The notes below the pieces were generated by a model that searched no databases, was not told where the DNA came from, and was given only the letters and a program-made list of their open reading frames with translations. Position numbers and translations under genes: made by a program. 13,470 nucleotides of DNA from Verrucomicrobiota bacterium (GTDB lineage: Bacteria > Verrucomicrobiota > Verrucomicrobiia > Verrucomicrobiales > DEV007): contig JASFYY010000014.1 in the NCBI GenBank assembly GCA_045046875.1, positions 1 through 13,470 on the forward strand, written 5' to 3'. This document shows, piece by piece, positions 1 through 13,470 of this stretch (the first letter of the stretch is position 1; each line of letters opens with the position of its first letter).

Positions 1-1
1 T

Positions 2-634
2 TCCTTTGCCGAATACTTCGACCCCGATCACATGGGTTTCAAATCATTAAGGGTGATGAACAACGACACCATCCAGCCGGGCGGAGGTTTTCCAAAACAC
101 CCCCACGACAACATGGAGATCTTCACTTACATCATCGAGGGACAATTGGAGCATCGTGATAGCATGGGCAACGGCACGATTATCGAAGCCGGCAATCTAC
201 AATACATGAGCGCTGGTAGCGGCATCCAGCACAGCGAGTTCAATCCCTCGCAAGAAAACCTCACCCATCTCTATCAAATCTGGTTACAACCTAACCAACG
301 CGACGGGGAACCTCGTTACGCCGAAAAACCCCTGGGCGAACTGACCAAGGCAAATCAACTGACCTTATTATTTTCTGCCGACGGCCGGGACGGCTCCACT
401 GCCATTCGTCAGGATGCTGAAATCTATTTAGGCAAGCTCGACCAAAATCAAATCATCTCCGTGCCCGCATCCACCTCAAGTCCGCACGCCTGGATCCAAG
501 TGATCTCCGGTGACATCTCGGTGCTCGGCGAATCCCTCACCACCGGTGACGGCCTGGCCATCGAAAACGCCGCTGACGAATTTTCAATCAAAGCGACGTC
601 TGACACCCAATTATTACTCTTCCGCCTCAGCTAA
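2..634 (+). CDS. Pirin family protein (YhhW-like, bicupin); 5'-truncated by the window edge
   Basis: The frame is open from base 2 (SFAEYFDPDHMGF...), matching the pirin N-terminal SFxxYxDPxxMGF motif, so the true start lies upstream of the window. The metal-binding motifs HPHxxMEI and GIxHSEFN are present, as is QIW. Confidence 0.93.
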   Translation, partial: SFAEYFDPDHMGFKSLRVMNNDTIQPGGGFPKHPHDNMEIFTYIIEGQLEHRDSMGNGTIIEAGNLQYMSAGSGIQHSEFNPSQENLTHLYQIWLQPNQRDGEPRYAEKPLGELTKANQLTLLFSADGRDGSTAIRQDAEIYLGKLDQNQIISVPASTSSPHAWIQVISGDISVLGESLTTGDGLAIENAADEFSIKATSDTQLLLFRLS

Positions 635-675
635 GCCCCTTGCCACCAATCACAAAGAACAAAAACAAACACTCT

Positions 676-1062
676 ATGAAAAACAAAATCGACAACATCG
701 CCGGAGGCCTGCTGGGTCTGTTATTCCTCATATTTGCCGCGAACTTTTTCCTCCACTTCATCCCCATGCCACCATTACCGGAGGGCACACCCGCTGCGGC
801 TTTCATGGGCGCGATGTACGGCGCAGGTTACCTGACCTTTGTCAAGGTAATCGAAATCATCGGAGCCCTACTGATCGCCATTCCCAAAACCCGCAATCTC
901 GGCCTGCTCTTCCTCGGCCCCATCGTGATCAACATTCTGGCATTCCATACATTCCTCACCGGAGGCCATGGACTGACCGACCCACCCGTCATCCTCATCA
1001 CCCTACTTTCTGCTTTCCTTCTTTGGTCAGGTCGTTCATCATTCGCCAAGCTCATCAATTAA
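676..1062 (+). CDS. DoxX-like small membrane protein
   Basis: About 128 aa with roughly four hydrophobic segments and the motifs GYLTFVKVIEIIGALL and LGPIVINILAFH typical of DoxX-family proteins. The ATG at 676 is preferred over the TTG at 640. Confidence 0.75.
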   Translation: MKNKIDNIAGGLLGLLFLIFAANFFLHFIPMPPLPEGTPAAAFMGAMYGAGYLTFVKVIEIIGALLIAIPKTRNLGLLFLGPIVINILAFHTFLTGGHGLTDPPVILITLLSAFLLWSGRSSFAKLIN

Positions 1063-1074
1063 CAAACCTTCAGC

Positions 1075-1953
1075 ATGCATCCCAACGAACTCTCCGAACT
1101 CAGCGACTTCCAACTGCTCGACTTACGTTTGCCTGATGATTATGAGGCAGTTCACCTAGCAGCAGCACTTAACAACTGCGTCTTCGAAGTTTCTTTCATC
1201 GATCAGCTTGAAAAAACCGCGCCCAATCCCTCGTTGACTACTCTGGTTTATGGCGCCAACGATGACAGCATGGAAGCCGCCGTTGCGGTGGAAAAAATGC
1301 AGCAGGCCGGTTATACGGATGTGCAAATTCTGGCAGGCGGCTTCCAGGCGGCCCGACAAGCGGGCCTGCCCATCGTGACAGGCAAGCCCTTGCCTGATAC
1401 AGCACAGCTGACTGACGGAAGGCATGCTATCAACCTGGAAGAATCCAGCCTCGAATGGCTGGGGCGCAACTTGCTGAACAAACATTGGGGCACCGCACCG
1501 ATCGAATCCGGTCATCTCGAGTTTTGCGACGGCAAGCTGACAAGCGGCGAGTTCGTCATCGATTTGCAACAGATGGCATGCAGCGACTTAAAAAACAGCG
1601 ATCTTCACGACATTTTGATCGACCATCTGCATAGTGATGATTTTTTCGACGTCAAAAACCATCCCAAGGCCACTTTTACGCTAAAAAACTCATCGCCTCT
1701 GAACAACAGCTCACCGGGAGCTTGCAACCTCGCCATCACTGGCGAATTAACCCTGCGAGGACAAACCCACCCGATTGAATTCGAAGCCGCCGTCGGTCTG
1801 ACCCCCGAAGGGCAACCTGCTGCGCAAGCCAGCTTTTCAATCGACCGTACCCAATGGGGAATCCTCTACGGATCAGGCAAGTTTTTCCACCGCCTCGCCG
1901 GACACCTGGTCAACGACTTACTCGAATTCCAAATCAAAATACTCACCCACTGA
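1075..1953 (+). CDS. Rhodanese-like domain fused to a YceI (polyisoprenoid-binding) domain
   Basis: The N-terminal part has LLDLRLPDDYEAVHL and GYTDVQILAGGFQA...AGLP (rhodanese signatures). The C-terminal part has HWG, HLHSDDFFDVKNHPKATF, GELTLRGQTHPI and IDRTQWGI (YceI signatures). Confidence 0.85.
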   Translation: MHPNELSELSDFQLLDLRLPDDYEAVHLAAALNNCVFEVSFIDQLEKTAPNPSLTTLVYGANDDSMEAAVAVEKMQQAGYTDVQILAGGFQAARQAGLPIVTGKPLPDTAQLTDGRHAINLEESSLEWLGRNLLNKHWGTAPIESGHLEFCDGKLTSGEFVIDLQQMACSDLKNSDLHDILIDHLHSDDFFDVKNHPKATFTLKNSSPLNNSSPGACNLAITGELTLRGQTHPIEFEAAVGLTPEGQPAAQASFSIDRTQWGILYGSGKFFHRLAGHLVNDLLEFQIKILTH

Positions 1954-1978
1954 TCTCGATCAATAATACTTCTCTGTC

Positions 1979-2503
1979 ATGAAAATACTCGCTTTTGCAG
2001 CATCAACCAGCTCCACCTCCATCAATCGTCAACTCGCCAATCACGCTGCCGCTCAAATCACTGACGGCGAAGTGACTGAACTTGATTTGCGTCAATTTGA
2101 TCTCCCGATTTACAGCTCGGACGAAGAGGAGAACCAGGGCATCCCCGCCGCCGCTCACACATTCAAAGACTTGATCCTCGCTCATGACGGCATCGTATTG
2201 TCCCTTGCAGAACACAATGGCACCTACAGCGCCGCTTTTAAAAATCTCTACGATTGGACTTCGCGCATCGATGCCAAGGTTTGGGTGGACAAAGCCATGC
2301 TGTTACTAGCCACTTCGCCAGGAGCGCGCGGCGGAGTCACCGTGCTCGAAGCAGCCAAAGCCACTTTCCCCAGAATGGGCGCCGATTTGAAAGCCGACTT
2401 CAGCCTGCCTTCTTTCTATGATAACTTCTCTCCAGACAAAGGCATCACCGATAACAAACTCGCTGCCGACCTCAGTAAGGCCATTCAAATTTTCTGCAAA
2501 TAA
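1979..2503 (+). CDS. NADPH-dependent FMN reductase (flavodoxin-like fold)
   Basis: The motifs KILAFAASTSSTSIN, EHNGTYSAAFKNLYDW and ATSPGARGG match the FMN_red family. Confidence 0.9.
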   Translation: MKILAFAASTSSTSINRQLANHAAAQITDGEVTELDLRQFDLPIYSSDEEENQGIPAAAHTFKDLILAHDGIVLSLAEHNGTYSAAFKNLYDWTSRIDAKVWVDKAMLLLATSPGARGGVTVLEAAKATFPRMGADLKADFSLPSFYDNFSPDKGITDNKLAADLSKAIQIFCK

Positions 2504-2512
2504 AATTCCGTC

Positions 2513-4060
2513 ATGAACAAACCAACCATCGCCGCTAACAAACCCATTCCCGTCGAGCTCAAAGCCGGGCAAGAATATTATTACTGCACCTGCGGTAAAT
2601 CGGCCAATCAACCCTTCTGTGACGGCTCGCACAAAGGCACCGACTTTGTCCCCAAGGCTTTTGTCGCCGAAGAAGACGGCGACGCCTACCTTTGCCAATG
2701 CAAACAAACGGCCAATGCTCCCTTCTGCGACGGTTCCCATGCCAACGTCCCTGACGATCAAATCGGTAAGGAATTCGCCCTCGAAGTCGCTGCCGACCCC
2801 GACGCCATGCCCGAGGCCACACCCACACCGGAGGAACCCAGCGTTGCTTTCATTCATCAACTCGCCAAGGAAGGGCTGAGCAAACTGGGTCACCACGGCC
2901 CCATGGACGCCATGGGTGTGCCGCGCTTTGAATTACCCGATTGGGATGGCATCCAAATGATGGTCGCCCAACTCGCGCGCAAACCACTGATGGAAGACGT
3001 CCGTGTCGGCACCGAGCTCATCATCGGCCCCGAAGCCAAAAAGCCCCTGCAATTGGACATCCCCTTGTTTGTCAGTGACATGAGCTTCGGCGCACTTTCA
3101 GAAGAAGCCAAAACCGCCATGGCCAAAGGCGCTGAACTCGCCGGAACCGGAATTTGTTCGGGTGAAGGCGGCATGCTGCCCGATGAACAACAAGCCAACA
3201 GCCGTTATTTTTATGAACTCGCCTCAGCCAAATTCGGCTACGAAGAATCACTACTGAGTCGGGTGCAGGCCTTCCATTTCAAGTGCGGACAGGGAGCCAA
3301 AACCGGCACCGGCGGTCACCTGCCCGGCAATAAAAACGTCGGACGTATCTCGGAAGTGCGCGGTATCCCCGAGGGCCAGTCTGCCGTTTCACCACCTACT
3401 TTTACTGATCTCAGCAGCGTCGATGATTTTAAAAATTTCGCCGACCGGGTGCGGGAGATCAGCGGAGGCATTCCCATCGGTTACAAACTCAGCGCCCAAC
3501 ACATCGAACGCGATATCGACTTCGCGCTCGCCGGCGGAGCCGATTACATCATCCTCGATGGCCGTGGCGGCGGCACCGGAGCCGCTCCCCTGTTGTTCCG
3601 CAACCACATTTCCGTACCGACCATCCCGGCCCTGGCACGCGCCCGCCACCATCTCGACAAAGCCGGTGCCAGTGGACGGGTCACCCTCATCATCACCGGT
3701 GGCCTGCGCACCCACAACGACTTCATCAAAGCCCTCGCCTTGGGCGCCGACGGAGTAGCGGTGGCCAATTCCGCGATGCAAGCCATCGGCTGCATTGGAG
3801 CCCGCATCTGCAATACCAACCTCTGCCCCGCCGGAATCGCCACCCAGAAACCCGAGCTGCGCAAAAAACTCAAAGTCGAAGCGGCAGCACAACAACTGGG
3901 CAATTATTTCGCCGCCACCACCGAACTGATGCAAGTCATGGCCCGCGCCTGCGGCCACAACCACTTGAATCAGCTCAACAAGGACGACCTCGCCAGCTGG
4001 GATAAATCCCTCGCCGAACTGGCCGGCATCGAATACTCAGGATTCGATCCTGCAAGATAA
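2513..4060 (+). CDS. Glutamate synthase-related FMN-binding protein with two N-terminal CDGSH iron-sulfur domains
   Basis: Two CDGSH motifs (CTCGKSANQPFCDGSH and CQCKQTANAPFCDGSH). GltB FMN-barrel motifs MSFGALS, SGEGG, GQGAKTGTGGHLPG and DGRGGGTGA. A [3Fe-4S]-type Cys motif CIGARICNTNLCPAGIATQ. No glutamine amidotransferase domain. Confidence 0.92.
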   Translation: MNKPTIAANKPIPVELKAGQEYYYCTCGKSANQPFCDGSHKGTDFVPKAFVAEEDGDAYLCQCKQTANAPFCDGSHANVPDDQIGKEFALEVAADPDAMPEATPTPEEPSVAFIHQLAKEGLSKLGHHGPMDAMGVPRFELPDWDGIQMMVAQLARKPLMEDVRVGTELIIGPEAKKPLQLDIPLFVSDMSFGALSEEAKTAMAKGAELAGTGICSGEGGMLPDEQQANSRYFYELASAKFGYEESLLSRVQAFHFKCGQGAKTGTGGHLPGNKNVGRISEVRGIPEGQSAVSPPTFTDLSSVDDFKNFADRVREISGGIPIGYKLSAQHIERDIDFALAGGADYIILDGRGGGTGAAPLLFRNHISVPTIPALARARHHLDKAGASGRVTLIITGGLRTHNDFIKALALGADGVAVANSAMQAIGCIGARICNTNLCPAGIATQKPELRKKLKVEAAAQQLGNYFAATTELMQVMARACGHNHLNQLNKDDLASWDKSLAELAGIEYSGFDPAR

Positions 4061-4065
4061 ACAAA

Positions 4066-4088
4066 GCAGCGCGGGTTTTCCCACCCGC
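4066..4088 (+). repeat. Degenerate REP-like hairpin just after the CDGSH/glutamate-synthase gene; possible terminator or mRNA stabiliser
   Basis: GCAGC-GCGGG-ttttccca-CCCGC forms a 5-bp GC stem preceded by GCAG, one change from the GTAG REP tetranucleotide. Confidence 0.35.
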
Positions 4089-4183
4089 CGAACAAGAGCA
4101 AACTCCCGCCAACTAATAAACAAAAAATGTGTCATCAACACAAATCACACAACCCATCGTAAAAGACGTCATCCTATAAAAAA

Positions 4184-4254
4184 TCAGTGTTTATCAGTGG
4201 TTTAAAAACATTATACCCACTGATGAACACTGAGAGGCACTGAGAGGCACTGAG
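4184..4254. repeat. Inverted repeat combined with a 10-bp tandem repeat between convergent genes
   Basis: tcagtgtttatcagtgg (4184-4200) is the reverse complement of ccactgatgaacactga (4217-4233) with one mismatch. The right arm continues as 10-bp units: cactgatgaa, cactgagagg, cactgagagg, cactgag (4218-4254). Confidence 0.85.
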
Positions 4255-4354
4255 CAAGCCCTTTATTTAGCTGGAGAAAATATATCACCAAAGTTCTGAT
4301 TTGCGATCTCCTTATTACTGGACAACAGGAGCGATCGCTCCGGCTGCCTTCGCA

Positions 4355-7300
4355 TCACCCAACAATCCGCAAATCCCCATAACCGTTGCTCGACTTGCTA
4401 ACCTGTATCTGCGCACCAATGCGTTGTTTGAGTGCGTCCACATGAGAAATGATACCAATGGTGCGATTGGACAAACGCAAATTCTCCAAAGCTGCGAGGG
4501 CGATATCCAAGGTATCCGTATCAAGCGTACCAAAACCTTCATCGATAAAAAGACTCTCAATCCGGGTTTCACTGCCTGCTAAATCAGAAAGCCCCAGCGC
4601 CAACGCCAGACTGATCAAAAACGATTCACCCCCGGAAAGACTGCGGGTAGGGCGCACCGCGTCGCCTTGATACAAGTCGACGATCACCAAACCTAAATCA
4701 CTATCCGAAGCGCGCTGAATCTGATAGCGATCATTAAGGTCGACCAAATGACGGTTAGCCAGGCTTAATAACTGCGTCAGGGTCAAGCCCTGCGCATATT
4801 TCGAAAAGGTATCACCTGTAGCCGAACCAATCAGGCTATTCAATTCCACCCATGACCTCGCATCTTCAGTCAATCGCTCGATTTTTTCTATTTGGCCGAC
4901 CTGGGAAGCGCGGGCTTCTTTGTCTTGTTGCAACAATAAATCAATTTCTCCTATTCCCTGGTTCAGTTGAGCCTGCTGTTCATTCTGATCAGCAAGCTCA
5001 CTTTTCAAAACCGTGATTTCATCCTCATCCACACGACTCAGTTGCTCTAACTTTCTCAGTTCTTTTTCGATTTGCTCTATCTGGGCTTGCAGACGGGTTC
5101 GGCGATGAGCCAAATCCTCCGCCTTCTGCATGAGCTCGCTCAGCTGCTCTTGCTCCAAACGAGCCGTTATTAATTCCCCTATACTAGAAAATGCCGAACC
5201 TTGTAAAGCTGTTTCAAGCGCTGCCGTATCAGCTAGAACCGCTTCCTTGCGCCCTTGCTCATCCTTGCGCTTTTGCTCCAACAAATGAGCGCTGCGATTG
5301 ACCGCATCCCCGGCTTCTTCACAACGTTTTCTCCGCTCCGCGCCATCCCCGGAGATCTGGCCATCCACACCACGGCTCTGCCCAACCAATTCCAGCTTGC
5401 CCAATTCGCTACGCCAAATTTTAAGCTCGTCCTCCAGCCGCTTGATCTCATCGGTCAGTGACAACAGCTGCCGTTTTAGTTCCTCACCGTCCTGCTGACA
5501 AGTTTCACGCTGCTTGACCTGCGCTTGATACACAGAATACCGCTCTTCGAGAACATCTGCACGATCCTTGGTTTCACCTGCTAATGAAATCGGCTCAGCA
5601 AATTTCCCCAGCTCTTGATTAAAGCGCTCAACCTGCTTCGCTATTTCCCCTTCACACAAAGTGATTCCTTCACCCAGGTTTTGTTGCTCTTGCGCCAGCT
5701 TACTTTTTGCCTGCTGCAAACTTTGCACCTCCGTCGCCATTACCCGCAAGTCGGCTTGTTGTTTTTTGCTAAATTCCACTGACTTCCTCTGGCCTTCGTC
5801 CAGCTGCTCAAGTTGACTGAGCTTTTTCCCCACCGCGCCGCCTGCTTCCTCCAGCACCGCCATCCATTGCTCGAAAATTTCCTGCGTATCAATCCCTCCC
5901 TCATAAGCCAGCGCTTTAGCTCCCGCCTCAAAACGGACCACTTCTTGCTGTAATGCCTGCTGCAAATCATCCAGGCGCTCTTGCCCGTATTTGAAATCCT
6001 TGCCAGCTTCAATCGCCTTTTTCGATTGCTCATCCAACTCTGCACTCGCCTGTGCCAATACATTATTTTGATCGTCCCGCGCCTTGCGATCAAGATTTTC
6101 ACTATGCCCGATCTCTCCCCCATAAGGGTGATCCTGCGCCCCACAAAGCGGGCACGCTTCCCCTTCTTTCAGATCCGCACGGTGCTCATCGAACGACGCT
6201 ATCTTCAAAGCTTGTTGAAAAATCCGCTCTTTATCCTCCAACACCGCCTGCTCATTCTCAAGCCTCTCCTGCTGCTGCTCATACTTCAAACGCGCCTGCT
6301 GATGTGCCTCACTTAATTCCGGAAGCCCCTGCTTCAGCTGTTCATATTGCTCATTTTTCCCTACCCATTGCTCACGCAGTATTTTTACATGCCGCGCCTG
6401 CTCACCCCTTGTCCGTTGCTCAGCCACCAAACCCCTCCAATGCTGAATACCATACCCATCAGACAATTGCTCGAAGTCAGACCTGGCTTTCTCAGCCTGC
6501 TCTCCGGCGATTTTTACCGCTGCTTTTGCCGTATCTTGCGCTGACGCTCTCTCTGCCAGGTTTCCCTCAGCCTGTCGTGCTTCTTGAACCAGCTGCTGCA
6601 AGCGCCCTTGCAAACTTGACCGCTCCCGCTCCCCTGAGCGGATAGACTCTCCCAAAGGCCTAATCGCCTGCAAAACTTTATCAAGGTTTTTGTCATCAAC
6701 ATGAGACTGCAACCAGTCATCCAGCTGAACCTTTAACTCACTGTTTTTTTCCTGGCTTAGTTCCAATTCAGTCAGCCCTGCCCGCCTAGTCTCCAGCTCC
6801 AATTTAACAAAATCAGCCGTCGCAACAAGTAAACCTCCCGCATGCTCTTGTTGTTGTTTATTTTCCTCTGCCAGACGCCCCACTTGCTGGCGCAATTTTT
6901 CCCGCTCGTTTTTATGACTCTCAAGCTGTAACCACGCCGCGTGAAAAGACAAAGTCGCTTCATGTCGAAGCAAACGTCCACGCTCGACCTCAAAAGCACT
7001 CTCCTCTACCTTCCACTGCGCCAAACCTTGCTGCAATCCCACCAATGACTGCCCCTGTTTGATGAAATCTTCCGAAGCCTTGATCTTGCCAGTCAACTCT
7101 GTCTGCGCAGCTTCCAAGTCTGACAAAATTTTCTTTTTCTCTTTTTTCTCTTGTCGCAAAATTCCCAACTCATCCTCACTTTTGAGCTCAAGTCCCTCCA
7201 TAAGCTGCCGAGCCAAAGTAATCTCCGCATTCTTTTCAGACTGAATCTGATAGGCCTTTTTACCAATATCAGAATAGATCTCCGTGCCGGTGATCTTCTC

Positions 7301-7813
7301 CAACAACTCCCCGCGATCCTTGTCACTCGCATCGAGGAACTCCTTGAAATGCCCTTGCGCTAACAAAACAGAACGCAAAAAACGCATGTAATTCAGCCCG
7401 GTCAGCTCCTCCACCAAGTCGTCGGCTTCTCTGACTTTCTCCGCTAAAATATCCCCCGAACCGTGCTCGGAAATTTCCCGTTTCATGGACTGCACTTTTC
7501 CGTCCGGTTTTTTATGTGCTCGGGCAAGTTGCCACTTGGCCCGATAGCGCCCTTCCTTACACTCGAACAACACCTCAGCAGAACACTCACCCGTGCCACG
7601 AGTCATCATCTCTTCGGGTTTTTCGTTTTCATAACGCGCCGCTTTGCCAAAAAGCGCCAAGGTGATCGCATCCAGAATCGTACTCTTGCCCGACCCTGTC
7701 GGCCCGGTGATGGCAAATATACCCGCCTCACCAAGCAAGCCGTTCTCAAAATCAATGCTGTTCTCACCCTTGAGCGAGTTCAGATTCAGTAAAGTGACTT
7801 TTAATATCTTCAT
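4355..7813 (-). CDS. sbcC: Exonuclease SbcCD subunit C (Rad50-like SMC ATPase)
   Basis: Walker A GPTGSGKS, Q-loop region LLAQGHF, long coiled coils with a central zinc hook CPLCG, signature LSGGESF and Walker B/D-loop FIDEGFGTLD. The start overlaps the sbcD stop (ATGA, 7810-7813). Confidence 0.96.
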   Translation of the reverse strand: MKILKVTLLNLNSLKGENSIDFENGLLGEAGIFAITGPTGSGKSTILDAITLALFGKAARYENEKPEEMMTRGTGECSAEVLFECKEGRYRAKWQLARAHKKPDGKVQSMKREISEHGSGDILAEKVREADDLVEELTGLNYMRFLRSVLLAQGHFKEFLDASDKDRGELLEKITGTEIYSDIGKKAYQIQSEKNAEITLARQLMEGLELKSEDELGILRQEKKEKKKILSDLEAAQTELTGKIKASEDFIKQGQSLVGLQQGLAQWKVEESAFEVERGRLLRHEATLSFHAAWLQLESHKNEREKLRQQVGRLAEENKQQQEHAGGLLVATADFVKLELETRRAGLTELELSQEKNSELKVQLDDWLQSHVDDKNLDKVLQAIRPLGESIRSGERERSSLQGRLQQLVQEARQAEGNLAERASAQDTAKAAVKIAGEQAEKARSDFEQLSDGYGIQHWRGLVAEQRTRGEQARHVKILREQWVGKNEQYEQLKQGLPELSEAHQQARLKYEQQQERLENEQAVLEDKERIFQQALKIASFDEHRADLKEGEACPLCGAQDHPYGGEIGHSENLDRKARDDQNNVLAQASAELDEQSKKAIEAGKDFKYGQERLDDLQQALQQEVVRFEAGAKALAYEGGIDTQEIFEQWMAVLEEAGGAVGKKLSQLEQLDEGQRKSVEFSKKQQADLRVMATEVQSLQQAKSKLAQEQQNLGEGITLCEGEIAKQVERFNQELGKFAEPISLAGETKDRADVLEERYSVYQAQVKQRETCQQDGEELKRQLLSLTDEIKRLEDELKIWRSELGKLELVGQSRGVDGQISGDGAERRKRCEEAGDAVNRSAHLLEQKRKDEQGRKEAVLADTAALETALQGSAFSSIGELITARLEQEQLSELMQKAEDLAHRRTRLQAQIEQIEKELRKLEQLSRVDEDEITVLKSELADQNEQQAQLNQGIGEIDLLLQQDKEARASQVGQIEKIERLTEDARSWVELNSLIGSATGDTFSKYAQGLTLTQLLSLANRHLVDLNDRYQIQRASDSDLGLVIVDLYQGDAVRPTRSLSGGESFLISLALALGLSDLAGSETRIESLFIDEGFGTLDTDTLDIALAALENLRLSNRTIGIISHVDALKQRIGAQIQVSKSSNGYGDLRIVG

Positions 7814-9018
7814 GAATCCCCCCCTTCCTGCACCTCATTCAGCACATGATTAAAACACTGCTTGAGCACCTCTTTCCCGACATCCCCCTGGTAATCCTCA
7901 ATCCGTTTATCAAACACCTGCGACGGCTCCCATTCATTGATCGTGACCGTCACCTCTCCACTGATTGGGTCAAAAGACGCCGCTTGTTTTTTTCTACCAA
8001 CCTTCAACACCTCTGCCCCGGCCTCATCGGCAATCTCCCGAATCTGATCATTAATCGCCGGGCTGATATCCCCCTCGCTCAAGGTAACTTCAATCCAAGG
8101 ACAGAGCTCATTTTTTCCAATCTTAAGCGCTGAAATAGCTGCCGACACTTGATCAAGGCTACCCTCCAAACTTAACAAGCGCCGCGCGAGAGGAACCATG
8201 ACCTCCTCTTGCTGCAGCTGATGATCTTTTGTTATCGTCAGCAACCGTAGTTGCTTATTTTCCGACTCGGAAAAACTCAACGGAATCGGGCTGCCTGAAT
8301 AACGAATATTCTCATTGCCGCCCACCTGCTGCGGGTGATGCAAATGCCCCAAAGCCACGTAGTCAAAACCTTCGCTGAACTGATCCGCTCCGATGCTACC
8401 CAGCTTACCAATATGAATGCTGCGCTCACCGTCCGAGAAATCCCCACCAACAGCCGTCAGATGCCCGGTTGCAATCACCACTTCATCCGGCAGCTTTTCT
8501 TTGCTGACCAGCTCGGCCATCTCTCGGTAAACTTCGACAATGCCCGCCTTGGTGCGTGCCTCCATCGCATCGTAACTCTCTCCCTCCACCGCACGCCGCA
8601 CATCCCGATCCCGCAAAAAAGGAACCGCCGCCACACAGAGTCGCCGGCCATCCTTTTCAAAATGCAGGATCGCATCGGACAAATTCTCCGGCACTTTTCC
8701 TATCACATGAGTGCGCAAGTGGGCCAGCACCGGACTAGACGCCTCCAGGTGCAGCGCCGAATCGTGATTTCCGCCTACGATCACCAGTTCACAATGCTGC
8801 AAAGCAAACAAACGCGTGATGAAATCAAAATAAAGCTGCTCCGCCGCCCGCGGGGGATTAGCCGTATCAAAAATGTCTCCCGCAATGATCAGCAGATCAA
8901 CCTTCTTCGCCTCAATGCACTGCAACAGAAAATCAACAAAGACCCGCTGCTCCTGCAAGCGATCCCGCCCATAGAAATTCTGGCCCAAATGCCAATCTGC
9001 TGTATGAATAATTTTCAT
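7810..9018 (-). CDS. sbcD: Exonuclease SbcCD subunit D (Mre11-like metallophosphoesterase)
   Basis: Motifs HTADWHLG, AGDIFD, GNHDS, TGHL, YVALGHLH and RYSGSPIPLSFSE; immediately upstream of sbcC. Confidence 0.96.
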   Translation of the reverse strand: MKIIHTADWHLGQNFYGRDRLQEQRVFVDFLLQCIEAKKVDLLIIAGDIFDTANPPRAAEQLYFDFITRLFALQHCELVIVGGNHDSALHLEASSPVLAHLRTHVIGKVPENLSDAILHFEKDGRRLCVAAVPFLRDRDVRRAVEGESYDAMEARTKAGIVEVYREMAELVSKEKLPDEVVIATGHLTAVGGDFSDGERSIHIGKLGSIGADQFSEGFDYVALGHLHHPQQVGGNENIRYSGSPIPLSFSESENKQLRLLTITKDHQLQQEEVMVPLARRLLSLEGSLDQVSAAISALKIGKNELCPWIEVTLSEGDISPAINDQIREIADEAGAEVLKVGRKKQAASFDPISGEVTVTINEWEPSQVFDKRIEDYQGDVGKEVLKQCFNHVLNEVQEGGDS

Positions 9019-9256
9019 AAATTAATACCACTGCCTTGCCCTCTTCCTATATCGCCAGCACCAGCCCACGTCCACCGCATAAACCCCCGGCAAAACGACA
9101 AAGCCCTCCAAAGCCAACTCCCCAACACCTTAGCCGCCAGGGTCGGACACCTACGGGGATATCCAGCGAAAAACTTTCAATTTCCATGTTAAGGCCTCAT
9201 TTATCCCCGTCACCCTACACAAAAACAACATCTCGGCCCATTTTGAGCAATTTCTC

Positions 9257-9290
9257 TTGAAGCCAGGCAAAAGCAGAGTAAGATCCGCCC
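9257..9290 (+). promoter_or_regulatory. Putative sigma70-type promoter of tRNA-Val
   Basis: TTGAAG (9257-9262), a 16-bp spacer, TAAGAT (9279-9284) and a GC-rich discriminator CCGCCC, ending 7 bp before the tRNA. This layout is typical of stable-RNA promoters. Confidence 0.5.
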
Positions 9291-9297
9291 AGATCAT

Positions 9298-9372
9298 GCG
9301 CGAATAGCTCAGCGGTAGAGCATCTCGTTTACACCGAGGCGGTCGGGGGTTCAAATCCCTCTTCGCGTACCA
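9298..9372 (+). tRNA. trnV: tRNA-Val (anticodon TAC)
   Basis: Cloverleaf: acceptor stem GCGCGAA/TTCGCGT (G1-U72 wobble), D arm GCTC-AGCGGTA-GAGC, anticodon arm TCTCG-TT TAC AC-CGAGG, T arm GGGGG-TTCAAAT-CCCTC, discriminator A and an encoded CCA. Confidence 0.97.
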
Positions 9373-9403
9373 GCCTTCGCCAAGGCTATGGCTGGCAAGC
9401 CAG
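9350..9403 (+). repeat. Direct repeat copy 1: tRNA-Val 3' end (from the T loop) plus palindromic trailer
   Basis: ttcaaatccctcttcgcgtaccagccttcgccaaggctatggctggcaagccag (54 bp) is repeated at 9535-9589. Confidence 0.95.
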
Positions 9404-9475
9404 CTGTAATTGGGCATTGCTCCCGTCGAACGCAGGTCGGGACTGCCGATCTGATGAGCCCTAGCGAAACAGATG
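9401..9475 (+). ncRNA. Putative type III hammerhead ribozyme, predicted to cleave after GUA (A9408)
   Basis: Core CUGAUGA (9451-9457) and GAAA (9466-9469). Stem II is GC/GC with a CCUA loop. Stem III is CUGU (9404-9407) paired with ACAG (9469-9472), plus two outer pairs. Stem I is AUUGG (9409-9413) paired with CCGAU (9446-9450), extended by CA/UG and UCCCG/CGGGA. Confidence 0.8.
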
Positions 9476-9504
9476 ATCTTATTTTGCGAAGCCTGTTTTG
9501 CAGA

Positions 9505-9532
9505 GCATCATTATCCTGCAAGGAAATGATGC
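9505..9532. other. Strong hairpin ending 2 bp before the second direct-repeat copy
   Basis: gcatcatt-a-tcct-gca-agga-aatgatgc forms a 12-bp stem with a 1-nt bulge. Confidence 0.7.
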
Positions 9533-9534
9533 AA

Positions 9535-9589
9535 TTCAAATCCCTCTTCGCTTACCAGCCTTCGCCGAAGGCTATGGCTGGCAAGCCAG
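9535..9589 (+). repeat. Direct repeat copy 2: duplicated tRNA-Val 3' fragment (att-like) plus trailer
   Basis: ttcaaatccctcttcgcttaccagccttcgccgaaggctatggctggcaagccag (55 bp) differs from copy 1 by one substitution (G>T) and one inserted G. Confidence 0.95.
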
Positions 9590-9595
9590 TGGGTC

Positions 9596-9655
9596 GTAGG
9601 ATAGATTTTCAAATCTGTCCTCCTCCAATAAAACAGATATGGAAATCTGTTCTAC
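9596..9655. repeat. GTAG-type REP doublet in inverted orientation (REPIN-like)
   Basis: GTAGgatagattttcaaatctgtcc (9596-9620) and the reverse complement of 9632-9655 (GTAGaacagatttccatatctgtt) are each GTAG followed by an imperfect palindrome, and they face each other. Confidence 0.75.
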
Positions 9656-9663
9656 CTCACCTA

Positions 9664-11241
9664 TCAATCCTTGATAATCACCCTCCCGGGTTTTGCAGTC
9701 GACACCGGAGGTGATTGCGCTACCGGTACAAGCCCTTCTAACAACTCCTCCTTCGTGATCTTGCCGGGATAGGTATCTACGTATAACTCCACAGCTGCCG
9801 CAATGGATGCCATACGTGCCTCCTTGGTCAATGGGCGACTTTCTCCCTTTGCTCTCGGCCCCAAAGGAACGATCCAATCTGGCACCCCCCAGAGGGGATA
9901 GTCCATCTCGGTCAAATCTGTCGTAGGATCGATCATCACCCTATATGGCCGATCATTCAGAGACACCACGGATATCACCGTGATCTTGGTATCAGGCATG
10001 CCGTTTCTTGCTAACACCTGATCCAGTTCATGGGCATATTGAAGAATCATCCATGGATGTTTTGACATCGCCGATACATGCTCAGGTGCAAGTGTCGGCC
10101 GCAAGTCCGGATGTTCATTGAGCCAGGCTTCCGCTTCAGGGTGGCTGAATTTGAATTTGATGTAAGCCTCCTTACTGCGAAGCATCATCCGCCAAGAGAA
10201 CTTATGACTCACCTCTGTCCAAGCTGGATTATGACCAAAAAAATAAGCTCGTAACGGAAATGCCATTTGGATGGAAAAAAATACCAGCAGCAACCACAGG
10301 GCCATATTATTTGAACGTCTTCCTCCCAGTGCATTCAATTCAGGCGAACGTACCCTGCTGACTCCAGCAATAAATTTCTGAAATCCACCCCAAATCCACC
10401 GACCGGTTGCTGGGTGTAAAAAAATCAAAGTAGAAACAATGCCAATATAAGGGAAAAACCCAATCTTGAAAATACGACTATTCATCAAATGGAACACCAC
10501 TAGGACTGCGATCGCATAAGGCCGTGTTCGCCTCCACAGCAAAAGAAAAGGAGCTCCAAGATCAATCACTATTCCACCATAAGCCGCAAGCCAGGCAAAC
10601 CACTCTTGTCGTATCACCCACGTCAGCGGCGGACGGACGCCGGTGGAGGTCTTGAACCAATATTTCACTGGGTCAGCGTTGAGCCAGTCGACGTTCATTT
10701 TGGCAATCGCTCCATAAAAGTAGAGGATACACAACAAGGCGCGAATTTGGATATAATTCCAAAAAGGCACGACCTGTGGCAACGCATAGCCCTCATCATC
10801 ACGCGAAAAATAGGAACGCAAACTATACGTTTTGTCAGCTCCTGTAAATGCCAACAAAAAAGACATCATGCAAGTTAGGTAAAAATGATTATTGTAATAT
10901 ACCGTATCAATCAAGAATAAGTGCGTGTAAACCAAAGAAAAAACGATGCTTGAAAAGCGAAAGAATACGCCCAGACAAACCCCGATAGCCGCGAGCGACA
11001 GGACCGTTACTTCCACATACCCCATCCAATGCTCGGGAAAGCCATTTACCCAAGTGAAGATAGGATACTTGAAATGAAAAAAAGTCGCAGAATATACGCC
11101 GGTGACCTTGGGAAAACGGGTCACCGCTTCGGCCACCATCAAAGCCCCCCACAACAAGCGAAACAAACCAAGAGTGGCAGCGTCAACCGGTTGGTAAAAC
11201 CAATCAATCAGCCCCTTGTTTTTAGCCGGTTGAAGATTCAT
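9664..11241 (-). CDS. HTTM-domain protein, vitamin K-dependent gamma-carboxylase-like
   Basis: Multi-pass membrane protein with GGCX-like motifs PVDAATLGLFRLLWG, YYNNHFYL, YFYGAIAKMNVDWL, FHLMNSRIFKIGFFP and FSWRMMLRSK, plus the lumenal-domain-like SLNDRPYRVMIDPTTDL. Confidence 0.9.
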   Translation of the reverse strand: MNLQPAKNKGLIDWFYQPVDAATLGLFRLLWGALMVAEAVTRFPKVTGVYSATFFHFKYPIFTWVNGFPEHWMGYVEVTVLSLAAIGVCLGVFFRFSSIVFSLVYTHLFLIDTVYYNNHFYLTCMMSFLLAFTGADKTYSLRSYFSRDDEGYALPQVVPFWNYIQIRALLCILYFYGAIAKMNVDWLNADPVKYWFKTSTGVRPPLTWVIRQEWFAWLAAYGGIVIDLGAPFLLLWRRTRPYAIAVLVVFHLMNSRIFKIGFFPYIGIVSTLIFLHPATGRWIWGGFQKFIAGVSRVRSPELNALGGRRSNNMALWLLLVFFSIQMAFPLRAYFFGHNPAWTEVSHKFSWRMMLRSKEAYIKFKFSHPEAEAWLNEHPDLRPTLAPEHVSAMSKHPWMILQYAHELDQVLARNGMPDTKITVISVVSLNDRPYRVMIDPTTDLTEMDYPLWGVPDWIVPLGPRAKGESRPLTKEARMASIAAAVELYVDTYPGKITKEELLEGLVPVAQSPPVSTAKPGRVIIKD

Positions 11242-11318
11242 TCAAGCAAAATATAGGCGACTCCCCCTATCCCGCAAGCACGAGACTAAAAAACCGTTTA
11301 TGGCATCCACAGATCCGC

Positions 11319-13469
11319 CTAGGGAACATCGCCCGGGTTCGGGAAGTTAATAATGGCACCATTCAGCAAAATAAAGCCATTCGCATCAGACGTCCCATTG
11401 TCGCGCAACGAGAAACCTCCTGCCCCAGTGCTGATATTATCAAGCGTACTGGAAAATGTCACATCATCCCCATCAAGATCCACGCTGATAGCTATGGAAT
11501 CCCCCCCGTTACTCAAAAATTGGTTGCCTGACATGTCAAAACTACCGCTAGCCGTGTCAATGTCATCAGAATCAATTCGTAAGTTCAACCCGTCGCCAGT
11601 ATTGCCTGACACTATGTTATTAGAGAAAATCCCGTTAACCACCAGATCATCATCAATGCCATCAAAACTCAAGTGCACGTCAGCTCCTCGACCCAGGTTA
11701 TTCAGGAAAGTATTACCTGTAGCCTCAAAATCCACCGTCACTATGTCCCCATCGTCAGCTCGGAGGTCAAGCCTGAAACCATCACTTTGATTCGATTCGA
11801 ACCGATTCCCGACAAGTTTGATGCCAAATTCGGCCGTATCCTCTCCATCTGCATCGATATTGATATCAAGCCCTCGACTGCCGTTATTAAGGAAAGCATT
11901 GCTGATAAAAGTAGCGCTGAACATGGCGTCGTCCATATCTGCAACAAGCCTGAAGCCATTTGATGTATTTCCCGAAAAATTGTTTCCTTGAGCCACAATG
12001 TTCTGCACCGCGTTGTTGTCTGAATCAACCTGTAAATCAAACCCCTCAATATTACCCGTAAATTGATTTCCAGATATCATCACGTTGATCACTGGATTAT
12101 TTGGATCCCCAACATCGCCAGATGAATTTATATCTAACTGACCTCCATTGTTTGCATTCCCCGAACTGACGTTATTCCGAATGCCCAGATCAATTACACT
12201 ACCAACATCAGAATCCACCTGCACGCTAAATCCATTCGCCCCATTTCCCATAAATGTATTGCCCGAGATCGTACCAGCAACGTAGCCGGGATCCGTTAAG
12301 TTCGCATCAATGGCAATCTCTAAGCCATCACTCGCATTGTTGCTCAACACATTATTAGTCACACTAAAGGCTGCATTGTTGAGACTATCAAAAAACAGCC
12401 TAACCCCTTCAGCACCAGTCCCTGCAATGGTATTCGCATCAAGTGTGACATTAGCCACATCAGCTGTGGAAACCCCAATCCCTCCTGCAAAGCCATTGAC
12501 AATCGAAAAGCCGCTAAGCGAAAACTGCGGAATATTTGCCACCTGGAATCCCCCATTCAACACCGGTTGTGAGCCATTAGTGAATCGACGCCCACCATTC
12601 GCAGGAAGACCTCTGCCTCCACCCCAAATTTTAACACTCGATCCCGCATCCACCACATTCTCGGTGTAAGTCGTTCCCCTACCCGTCACAAACACATCCC
12701 CACGATTGCCAAACAGGGTGCTCGCCCGATTCACCCCGCCTTGAATCCCACTAAGCGGATTCTCAAAGGTTCCCGGTCCCCCCAGCGTGCCGCGTAAGTT
12801 GTCCACAAAGACAATCGAATCATCAATCACCACGACGCGGGTCTTGGTTTTTGTTTCCGTACTCACTTTACGTTTGTTCGGATCCTCGATAAAACCCGAC
12901 TGACTAGTACGCGCCCCGCTTGACAACCGCAGCGTCTGCTCGGTCATACGATCTCTTACCGTACTGCCTTTTCTGGAAGCCGACGCAAAAGATGGCGTGG
13001 GTGCCATCGCCGCAAAAGGACTAAGTGCATAGCTGCTCGGATAAGTCGAAGCCGATCCTCCCCGCAGAATCGCGCTTTCGCGATTGCGATTACTCATATT
13101 CACCCCGTCAAACATACCTGAGAACGATCCTTGGAAAGGACTGCGTCCGTCGGCCAGATTTTCCATGAAAATCGGAATCGTCATACGAATACCAAACAAC
13201 CAGTTGCTACCGGTGATCTCCTCGTCTGCATAATAGGTGGCATCAATCGCCAATTTTTGCGAAAAGCGTATTTCCGCTCTGCCCTTCAAGCCGCCGATAT
13301 CACTGCCGTAACTGTTGTTAAAATTGTAATAACCCGCGAACCAACGCAAGGCGACATAGCGCTCCAACCATGGGGTGAGCACTCCGATTTCAGCATCAAA
13401 GCCCTGCATCGTATCCTCGAAACGCTCGAACAACTGGTTCACCGTGGTGGTGCGGGTGGTGGTGGTATA
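11319..13469 (-). CDS. Large surface protein: end of an inverse-autotransporter-like beta-barrel followed by a right-handed parallel beta-helix passenger; 5'-truncated by the window edge
   Basis: The frame stays open to the window end (YTTTTRTTTVNQLFE...). Amphipathic barrel-like strands are present (GFDAEIG, WFAGYYNF, GLKGRAEIRF, NWLFGIRMTIP). These are followed by FVDN...GPGTFENPL, a beta-helix cap-like motif, and many N/G/D-rich repeats of the form ISGNxFxxNxxxGFxI. Confidence 0.75.
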   Translation of the reverse strand, partial: YTTTTRTTTVNQLFERFEDTMQGFDAEIGVLTPWLERYVALRWFAGYYNFNNSYGSDIGGLKGRAEIRFSQKLAIDATYYADEEITGSNWLFGIRMTIPIFMENLADGRSPFQGSFSGMFDGVNMSNRNRESAILRGGSASTYPSSYALSPFAAMAPTPSFASASRKGSTVRDRMTEQTLRLSSGARTSQSGFIEDPNKRKVSTETKTKTRVVVIDDSIVFVDNLRGTLGGPGTFENPLSGIQGGVNRASTLFGNRGDVFVTGRGTTYTENVVDAGSSVKIWGGGRGLPANGGRRFTNGSQPVLNGGFQVANIPQFSLSGFSIVNGFAGGIGVSTADVANVTLDANTIAGTGAEGVRLFFDSLNNAAFSVTNNVLSNNASDGLEIAIDANLTDPGYVAGTISGNTFMGNGANGFSVQVDSDVGSVIDLGIRNNVSSGNANNGGQLDINSSGDVGDPNNPVINVMISGNQFTGNIEGFDLQVDSDNNAVQNIVAQGNNFSGNTSNGFRLVADMDDAMFSATFISNAFLNNGSRGLDINIDADGEDTAEFGIKLVGNRFESNQSDGFRLDLRADDGDIVTVDFEATGNTFLNNLGRGADVHLSFDGIDDDLVVNGIFSNNIVSGNTGDGLNLRIDSDDIDTASGSFDMSGNQFLSNGGDSIAISVDLDGDDVTFSSTLDNISTGAGGFSLRDNGTSDANGFILLNGAIINFPNPGDVP

Positions 13470-13470
13470 T

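Follow-up and report, generated by a model that had tools for sequence, protein, structure and literature searches.

A proposed protein-free tRNA-flank repeat with covarying hairpins behind tRNA-Val in Verrucomicrobiales

Behind the transfer RNA (tRNA) gene tRNA-Val(TAC) of a Verrucomicrobiota bacterium (Verrucomicrobiales, DEV007; GenBank assembly GCA_045046875.1, contig JASFYY010000014.1, positions 1 to 13,470, the whole of which is called the window) lies a unit of 185 base pairs (bp) bracketed by two copies of the tRNA 3' end. We tentatively favor the reading, plausible if still short of probable, that this unit is a lineage-specific, protein-free tRNA-flank repeat, made of a module of about 110 nucleotides (nt) of covarying hairpins closing with a second tRNA-Val 3' end, which is likely transcribed in the tRNA trailer and whose copy number is likely altered by recombination between the tRNA ends. 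The unit is an old conserved feature of the lineage and not a single-genome event. A first-pass annotation of this DNA had proposed a ribozyme-carrying miniature integrative element; its description of the repeats holds, and its ribozyme does not.

Results

The direct repeat at tRNA-Val(TAC)

Both a repeat search and BLAST recover a direct repeat in which positions 9350-9403 (54 nt) return at 9535-9589 (55 nt), the copies differing by a G>T mismatch and an additional G, at a start-to-start spacing of 185/186. The repeat begins at the T loop (TTCAAAT) of tRNA-Val(TAC) and ends 31 nt beyond the CCA, as the first-pass annotation had described, and the two tRNA-end copies, named X1 and X2 below, bracket the unit as direct repeats. 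The 131 nt between the repeat copies occur once in the 5.59-Mb, 163-contig genome (BLAST). The unit was also rightly regarded as lacking a convincing open reading frame (ORF): mechanical calls place two ORFs across the region, 9388-9714 on the + strand (108 amino acids, aa) and 9351-9539 on the - strand (62 aa), of which the 108-aa ORF matches no Pfam family and contains a 1-nt insertion in the closest relative (G005, 92% identical). Likewise, no integrase domain was found among the 11 larger window ORFs scanned. Of the neighbors, SbcC/SbcD lie upstream and a gene of the HTTM (vitamin K carboxylase-like) type lies downstream, both on the opposite strand. Here and below, G000 is the genome of this window, other G-numbers are related genomes and g-numbers are genera of one Verrucomicrobiales family; tRNA position numbers are our own count on gene sequences.

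An assembly artefact, which the first-pass annotation had named as a possible refutation, is not the explanation, since five further assemblies from the genus and family also carry the duplication and separate, independent metagenome contigs span 9382-9564. The 31 nt past the CCA had been included in an attachment-site (att)-like repeat. This trailer repeat (GCCTTCGCCAAGGCTAYGGCTGGCAAGCC) is a separate, dispersed one, also found behind the transfer-messenger RNA gene (C47:81-112(-)) and behind a displaced tRNA-Ala fragment (C10:18199-18231(-)). It follows both X copies only in G000 and G005, not in G003, G002, G001 and G007, and is not to be counted in the att core. The features of the locus are as follows.

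9257-9284, + strand: promoter-like pair TTGAAG (9257-9262) and TAAGAT (9279-9284) with a 16-nt spacer, upstream of tRNA-Val, putative and read from sequence only
9298-9372, + strand: tRNA-Val(TAC) with encoded CCA (ARAGORN; Rfam tRNA, 68.2 bits)
9350-9372, + strand: X1, first repeat copy, comprising the T loop, T-stem 3' strand, acceptor 3' strand, A and CCA (tRNA positions 54-76)
9373-9403, + strand: first copy of the dispersed trailer repeat (GCCTTCGCCAAGGCTATGGCTGGCAAGCCAG)
9404-9422, + strand: S, unit-specific spacer, unique in the genome and poorly conserved among relatives
9423-9447, + strand: Y block, made of a degenerate inverted copy (CCGTCGAAC), GCA, a direct copy of tRNA-Val 45-51 (GGTCGGG, 9435-9441) and the conserved ACTGCC (9442-9447), from alignments
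9449-9474, + strand: H1, with an AUCUG/CAGAU stem, tandem G.A/A.G, a short GC stem and a CCUA loop, with covariation across genera
9486-9492, + strand: GCGAAGC mini-hairpin (GNA triloop, C:G closing pair), GCGAAGC or GCGCAGC in nearly all units
9500-9503, + strand: GCAG, possible 3' strand of a putative closing helix P2 with CTGC at 9443-9446
9505-9532, + strand: H2, GCAUCAUU..AAUGAUGC, with the inner tip UCCU-GCA-AGGA, supported by covariation
9535-9557, + strand: X2, second copy of tRNA positions 54-76, preceded by AA and identical to X1 at 22 of 23 positions
9558-9589, + strand: second copy of the trailer repeat, with one extra G
9596-9655, strand not assigned: dispersed palindromic repeat resembling repetitive extragenic palindromes (REP-like; GTAGGATAGATTT..ATCTGT), outside the unit and marking its distal flank, with 41 further short BLAST matches in the genome

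The promoter-like hexamers are also present in G005 and G003; a consensus promoter scan did not list the pair because only 8 of 12 positions match.

Structure of the hairpin module

In alignments the unit has the order X(54-76), spacer, Y, ACTGCC, H1, A-rich linker, GCGAAGC, GCAG, H2, AA, X(54-76). The right arm of Y equals tRNA-Val positions 45-51, its left arm, taken together with its flank (AACCCCCGACC), matches positions 45-55 in reverse complement, and in most relatives the block is the palindrome CCCGACC-GCA-GGTCGGG, followed by an ACTGCC that is invariant in the aligned relatives. The H1 stem appears in relatives as ATTTG/CAAAT, TTTTGAC/GTCAAAA or GTCCGGC/GCCGGAC, and genus g1 conserves the tandem G.A/A.G step inside it. 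Relatives have a G(C/U/A)A triloop at the tip of H2, and C-GNA-G tips are present in Y, H2 and the mini-hairpin, with GNA triloops appearing on the tRNA-sense strand only.

On a model-derived alignment of 34 distinct rows, 89% of cells paired, versus 64% in shuffles and 26-39% with slid partners; two-sided changes were counted at 18 of 20 pairs overall (9/10 in H1, 6/6 outer pairs of H2), and the observed covariation values were reached by none of 500 shuffles. These counts fit hairpins that would be under structural constraint. The putative P2 helix (CTGC:GCAG) could form its four core pairs in 23 of 26 parsed units, with a two-sided change in one unit, and a candidate P1 helix (GCAG/CTGC around GGTCGGGA) is found in units at tRNA-Val, with one double change (L037), and is absent from those at tRNA-Phe described below. 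Single-sequence folds of 9423-9560 gave modest values (z = -2.0 as RNA, -2.6 as DNA), and the lowest-energy fold specific to G000 conflicts with the conserved H1. Two further candidates were discarded: a pairing of GCGAAG (9487-9492) with CTTCGC of X2, which is not kept in g2 units with a different acceptor sequence, and a reading of the second half of the module as a decayed tRNA 5' half (GCGAA..AGAGCATC in G000), which is not kept in relatives.

Distribution among genomes

When 40 relatives were searched at the DNA level, the complete arrangement turned up in G005 and, highly diverged, in G003, a motif scan of tRNA-Val loci found the second tRNA-end copy also in G002 and in G007 of another genus, and a more diverged copy in G001 was added by alignment; the same module stands behind tRNA-Val(TAC) in G005, G003, G002 and G001 (g1) and in G007 (g3). 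When covariance models were run over 134 genomes of the family, model R1 matched at E<=1e-5 in 24 (5 of g1, 17 of g2 and 2 of g3, the match in G082 being a partial unit) and model R3 found units in 28, the module being missing from most genera; model R2 found it in none of 114 genomes from seven other families of the order. Many of these genomes are fragmented metagenome-assembled genomes whose assemblies break at tRNA loci. The tRNA-Val(tac) gene lies directly upstream in 19 of 20 regions examined, the exception being a contig end. The use of the same tRNA in three genera, together with a divergence that goes along with that of the hosts, indicates vertical descent.

The exact Y 21-mer CGRCCGCAGGTCGGGAHTGCC was scanned over one genome per species (185,579 species), which gave 88 stretches, 80 of them fetched. 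The element was present at 10 of these 80 loci, nine with tRNA-Val upstream and all labelled Verrucomicrobiales, Verrucomicrobiota, Akkermansiaceae or uncultured bacterium. The other 70 are coding coincidences whose opposite strand reads GNPDLRP, which we take to be a TonB-dependent receptor motif, or GIPDLRPFY, presumably PheS-like; the 21-mer is frequent in Proteobacteria and other phyla (L107-L186), and GC-rich palindromic probes of this kind match coding DNA. Among other candidates, the loose pattern GTCGKSAHTGC..GCGMAGC gave mostly chance matches in coding DNA of the 134 genomes, G024 being the only true one of 7 checked, a match in G094 (L201, R3 28.9 bits) was treated as false, being coding-looking DNA without a tRNA, and L055 (G132) is the tRNA itself. 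The first-pass annotation had suggested a search for further copies of the intervening sequence; none turned up elsewhere in the genome or in 2.9 million viral contigs (0 matches). No description of the module was found in the open-access literature searched, and it has no Rfam family.

Copy number and empty site

The number of units per tRNA-Val locus ranges from 0, 1 and 2 to at least 3. Two full 174-bp units and a partial third are found in G066 and G070, at least three units of 180 bp in G065 (at a contig end), one full and one partial unit in G096 and G073, and a partial unit only in G052 and G082; no unit is present in G004 or G006. Within arrays, the units are 98.3%, 94.8% and 92.8% identical to each other, and the arrays end at different points, namely after Y and half of H1 (G066), after GCGAAGC (G096), after H2 without X (G073) and after X2 (G000). 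Such ragged ends fit unequal crossing-over better than a fixed att core, and the features of a tandem repeat under unequal crossing-over, that is, variable copy number, partial terminal units and diverged units, are all present.

No RNA run was among the 15 listed for the sequence; contigs, not reads, of four metagenome runs were compared with the window. In the runs labelled X1 and X4, contigs of 3541 nt and 1123 nt join 9404 to 9591, which is the exact empty site, 186 bp shorter; their flanks are about 99% identical, and 9418-9565 has zero depth. The two other runs span 9382-9564 with G005-like variants. The occurrence of filled and empty states in these contigs shows that the duplication is real and polymorphic among close strains. 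Both the empty sites and the multi-unit arrays that the first-pass annotation had proposed to look for therefore exist, although a homologous deletion between the repeats would produce the same empty site as an excision.

The X copies are each genome's own tRNA-Val end, including a compensated acceptor variant without encoded CCA (TTCACGTACGT), and within g1 drift of the second copy amounts to 0-5 of 23 positions. In G095 (L050, C179, about 150-500, on the unit's strand), whole tRNA-Val bodies (positions 1-51) are fused to the module at T-arm 51/54 and stand in tandem upstream of an intact tRNA-Val, each fused body being preceded by a duplicate of the stretch in front of the intact gene, the place expected for a promoter.

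Modules at other tRNA genes

Homologous modules are found at tRNA-Phe(GAA) in G007 and G139 (g3), G024 (g20) and G141 (g38). In this Phe type X is the end of tRNA-Phe and Y is an inverted and a direct copy of tRNA-Phe positions ~33/44-51, which tracks the local T stem (GGC|AC with GGCGG, GGT|AT with GGTGG). In G024 the intact tRNA-Phe is followed by 31 kb, a plain displaced fragment and then the unit. A module in G047, at a distance of 3.1 kb behind the intact tRNA-Thr, ends in the 3' end of tRNA-Thr(CGT). Its left flank does not look like tRNA-Thr and resembles a shortened Val-type Y, and the module adjoins a primase/helicase-like gene that is truncated (AAA_25, phrog_239) and an ORF of 710 aa without family. 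In the Val, Phe and Thr types alike, the junction between module and tRNA falls at exactly T-loop position 54, which we take to be the cut site of T-loop-type integrases. In the comparisons that the first-pass annotation had called for, the empty site, the arrays and these modules, two of which are separated from their tRNA by 31 kb and 3.1 kb of island-like DNA, all look as a mobile unit would, but no integrase action was seen.

The hammerhead claim

The first-pass annotation had placed a hammerhead ribozyme between the repeat copies and had drawn from it the idea of circular, viroid-like or retrozyme-like RNAs. No hammerhead family of Rfam matched the window at gathering score, nor 9250-9700 at E<=10; only tRNA matched at gathering score, and weak matches on 9250-9700 (plastid ycf2, Tymo tRNA-like, microRNAs, Moco, sR53) are chance or the tRNA itself. 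The supposed hammerhead boxes (CTGATGAG, 9451-9458) sit inside H1, where the CUG of CUGAUGA (9451-9457) pairs with the CAG following GAAA in the AUCUG/CAGAU stem, so that core nucleotides are base-paired; the putative stem II has only 2 bp, and neither a stem I/III partner nor an (NUH) cleavage triplet was found in the sequence. CUGAUGA is kept in two of six aligned sequences, the other four having UUGACGA (2), UUGAUGA (1) and CCGGCGA (1), and the units of g2, the largest genus, have a plain hairpin at the H1 site and no such loop. The likeness to hammerheads and retrozymes comes down to the local strings CUGAUGAG and CGAAAC in two genomes, G000 and G005, and the unit differs from them by failing covariance models, core conservation and stem architecture. 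A hammerhead-bearing circular RNA or retrozyme-like replicon is accordingly refuted at the sequence level, the chance that it exists being practically nil, and with no hammerhead the retrozyme or viroid-like rolling-circle idea is left without basis. The case advises caution, CUGAUGA..GAAA strings together with tRNA-end repeats being insufficient to infer a ribozyme-bearing mobile element.

Discussion

The unit stands right behind a tRNA gene that has a putative, conserved promoter-like pair, and a scan found no terminator-like site separating the two; for this reason the unit would be made as RNA along with the tRNA-Val precursor, its stable hairpins letting it persist as a processed 3'-trailer RNA. 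Loss would occur by precise recombination between X1 and X2, which would leave the tRNA intact and give the empty site, and gain by unequal crossing-over, which would give arrays with ragged ends, while gene conversion with the neighboring tRNA would keep X, and Y in the Phe type, identical to the local tRNA. That the unit acts and persists as RNA is a step that we infer from these features, and several observations weigh against it. The alignment was fitted to the structure, and the covariation counts therefore lean towards it; covariation in inverted repeats can also come from template-switch correction of palindromes without selection. The stems contain 20 G.U versus 12 A.C cells, a weak strand signal for RNA. 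Mini-hairpins of the GCGAAGC/GCGNAGC kind and d(GNA) triloops of the C-GNA-G type are described as extraordinarily stable in DNA and are known at single-strand origins of phages and plasmids (PMC13037366, PMC3201870); the GCGAAGC and C-GNA-G loops of the unit point to single-stranded DNA as much as to RNA. The likeness to such origins lies in the GCGAAGC or GCGCAGC motif and the C-GNA-G tips; those hairpins, however, act in single-stranded phage or plasmid DNA, and a single-stranded state of this locus beyond transcription and replication has no support. Finally, the same module ending in three tRNAs, always at position 54, requires some transfer of DNA between tRNA loci beyond vertical descent. 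Because of the three tRNAs, the constant junction, the DNA-type loops and the weak G.U signal, two explanations at the level of DNA stay alive.

According to one of them, which we judge unlikely on balance, the unit (X-S-Y-Z) is an integrase-less mini-element, comparable to a cis-mobilizable element, that would excise and integrate at the tRNA T loop with the help of a tyrosine integrase from another locus, the hairpins serving as an att-site arm or as a single-strand-active site such as an origin of transfer (oriT) or a priming signal. This would agree with the direct tRNA-3'-end copies and the exact empty site, with the multi-unit arrays, with a right end that always falls at T-loop position 54 of the local tRNA, and with the G047 module, whose Val-like left flank and tRNA-Thr end are found at the far end of 3.1 kb that include the truncated primase/helicase gene; eight tyrosine-recombinase matches elsewhere in the genome could act in trans, and stable DNA mini-hairpins are typical of single-strand origins (PMC13037366). 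However, no integrase lies within or beside any unit, H2 and the AA to the left of X2 are unlike the T-stem 5' strand needed for a symmetric core site, the internal ends of arrays vary and their units have diverged by 2-7%. The sequences also cluster by host genus with one locus per tRNA, neither the genome nor the viral contigs hold further copies, and a circle of about 185 bp was not seen among the assembled contigs of the DNA runs. What stands of the protein-free miniature integrative element of the first-pass annotation is therefore its bracketing tRNA ends, to which the empty site and the arrays can be added; its ribozyme is lost, and no sign of integrase action or of a circle was seen. 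The alternative offered there, a collapsed prophage remnant, does not apply in a simple sense because the hairpins covary.

The other DNA-level explanation, which we consider improbable, holds that the hairpin module from ACTGCC to AA is an insertion that targets copies of tRNA genes in the T arm, between positions 51 and 54. It would survive only in displaced, non-essential tRNA fragments beside the intact gene, and would be spread by an enzyme of the host or of an element that works on hairpinned single-stranded DNA or on RNA. Taking the module out of Y and X would give back an ordinary displaced 3' fragment of tRNA-Val or tRNA-Phe, copies of different tRNAs share the position, the Phe-type left flank follows the local tRNA variant, and in G095 whole tRNA-Val bodies are interrupted there. 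Nevertheless, three tRNA types only are involved in 134 genomes, at one locus each, no target-site duplication is seen, the left flank of the Thr type is not tRNA-Thr-like and no enzyme is known as a candidate; ectopic recombination via the T-loop sequence, which is conserved, could lead to the same arrangement. We hold it to be rather unlikely that a hairpin module of about 95 nt represents a protein-free element of a new type, one that homes to the T arm of tRNA copies at position 54 (Val, Phe, Thr), spreads between tRNA loci and amplifies there via hairpinned single-stranded DNA or RNA with enzymes encoded elsewhere, and can leave by a precise excision that restores the tRNA locus. A neutral relic, that is, a decayed island end or decayed tandem tRNA duplicate whose palindromes are kept by templated mutation and whose tRNA-like parts are kept by gene conversion, with no function, would explain why units are lost or partial in many genomes (partial in G082 and G052, none in G004 and G006) and missing from most genera of the family, and would suit the weak G.U/A.C asymmetry. 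We regard it as quite improbable, since module order and motifs (ACTGCC, GCGAAGC, GCAG, AA) are kept in at least five genera and three tRNA contexts amid unalignable spacers, and a 54-nt direct repeat should be deleted fast unless retained.

The tRNA-flank repeat that we favor shares features with several known systems. Tyrosine-integrase genomic islands leave displaced fragments of tRNA genes as attL/attR (Islander; PMC4383910). Like these, the unit has a 3' tRNA copy downstream of a preserved intact gene, and its precise loss restores a single copy; a classical example occurs in the same genome, where a tRNA-Ala fragment lies 41.5 kb from its gene with an integrase beside it. The unit differs in having 131 bp between the copies with neither integrase nor cargo, a tRNA copy split by a conserved hairpin module at T-arm 51/54, conservation over three genera, and tandem arrays with variable ends. 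Of the attributes of a tyrosine-integrase element, the direct repeat of the tRNA 3' end at both ends and the empty site are found here, and an integrase inside or beside the unit is not. Cis-mobilizable elements (CIMEs), which derive from integrative and conjugative elements, are att-flanked, kilobases long and without recombination genes; the unit resembles them in its att-like flanking repeats, in the lack of an integrase and in a possible tandem accretion at a tRNA locus, but it consists of 174-186 bp of hairpins only, and its mobilization is hypothetical. As far as the sequences go, it would thus behave like displaced island tRNA fragments and integrase-less att-flanked elements, but it fails on the integrase and on the layout of the core site. 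On the side of RNA, the 3'ETS-leuZ of E. coli is a tRNA 3' external transcribed spacer RNA; the unit is likewise a non-coding stretch right behind a tRNA gene that would be freed by tRNA processing, and differs in carrying a copy of the tRNA end and in being tandemly amplifiable, with no partner RNA known. The intervening sequences of bacterial 23S rRNA are hairpin blocks of about 100 nt within a helix of a stable-RNA gene, sporadic among relatives; the unit, too, has such a block in the helix of a stable-RNA gene copy, is sporadic and seemingly moves between gene copies by recombination, but its host is mostly a tRNA fragment and not a functional gene.

If the module is RNA, it would represent a family of structured RNAs not described so far, linked to tRNA 3' trailers in Verrucomicrobiales and with a built-in mimic of the tRNA end. 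If it acts as DNA, no smaller unit that is att-like and protein-free would have been seen so far at tRNA genes, and it would bear on the gain and loss of inserts at tRNA loci without integrase genes. Either way, loci holding from 0 to 3 copies, with the empty site known exactly, offer a clean natural system for studying recombination at duplicated tRNA ends.

Neighboring repeats and genes

Units of 30 bp related to the trailer repeat (CCTCCTTCGCCAAGGCTTCGGCGGTCAGGA) form tandem arrays at contig ends in G000 (C123:1-100, C39:1-100 and C54:82760-82830), and in G095 a trailer-repeat-like stretch follows tRNA-Val. Copies of the REP-like repeat that marks the distal flank of the unit are scattered genome-wide, often as inverted pairs. 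In G000 a different conserved trailer, GCCTTCGCTTCGAATG..AATTCGAAA..GCCGCGCCGTAGCC, follows right after the CCA of tRNA-Val(GAC) (C9:47232-47306), tRNA-Val(CAC) (C118:24970-25044) and tRNA-Pro(GGG) (C59:18615-18691).

The classical-looking island of G000 comprises an intact tRNA-Ala(GGC) without encoded CCA (C10:59749-59822(-)), which DUF5131 and ParB-like genes adjoin, and, 41.5 kb downstream, a displaced 3' fragment (C10:18199-18262(-)) that carries CCA and a native trailer, with a tyrosine-recombinase match at C10:18975-19493. In the window itself, 9664-11241 (- strand) encodes a bacterial homologue of vitamin K-dependent gamma-carboxylase of 525 aa with HTTM and VKGC lumenal domains, 11319-13469 (- strand) is an ORF of at least 716 aa that matches no Pfam family and runs off the contig end, and 2513-4060 (+ strand) encodes a glutamate-synthase-domain protein with an N-terminal CDGSH iron-sulfur finger.

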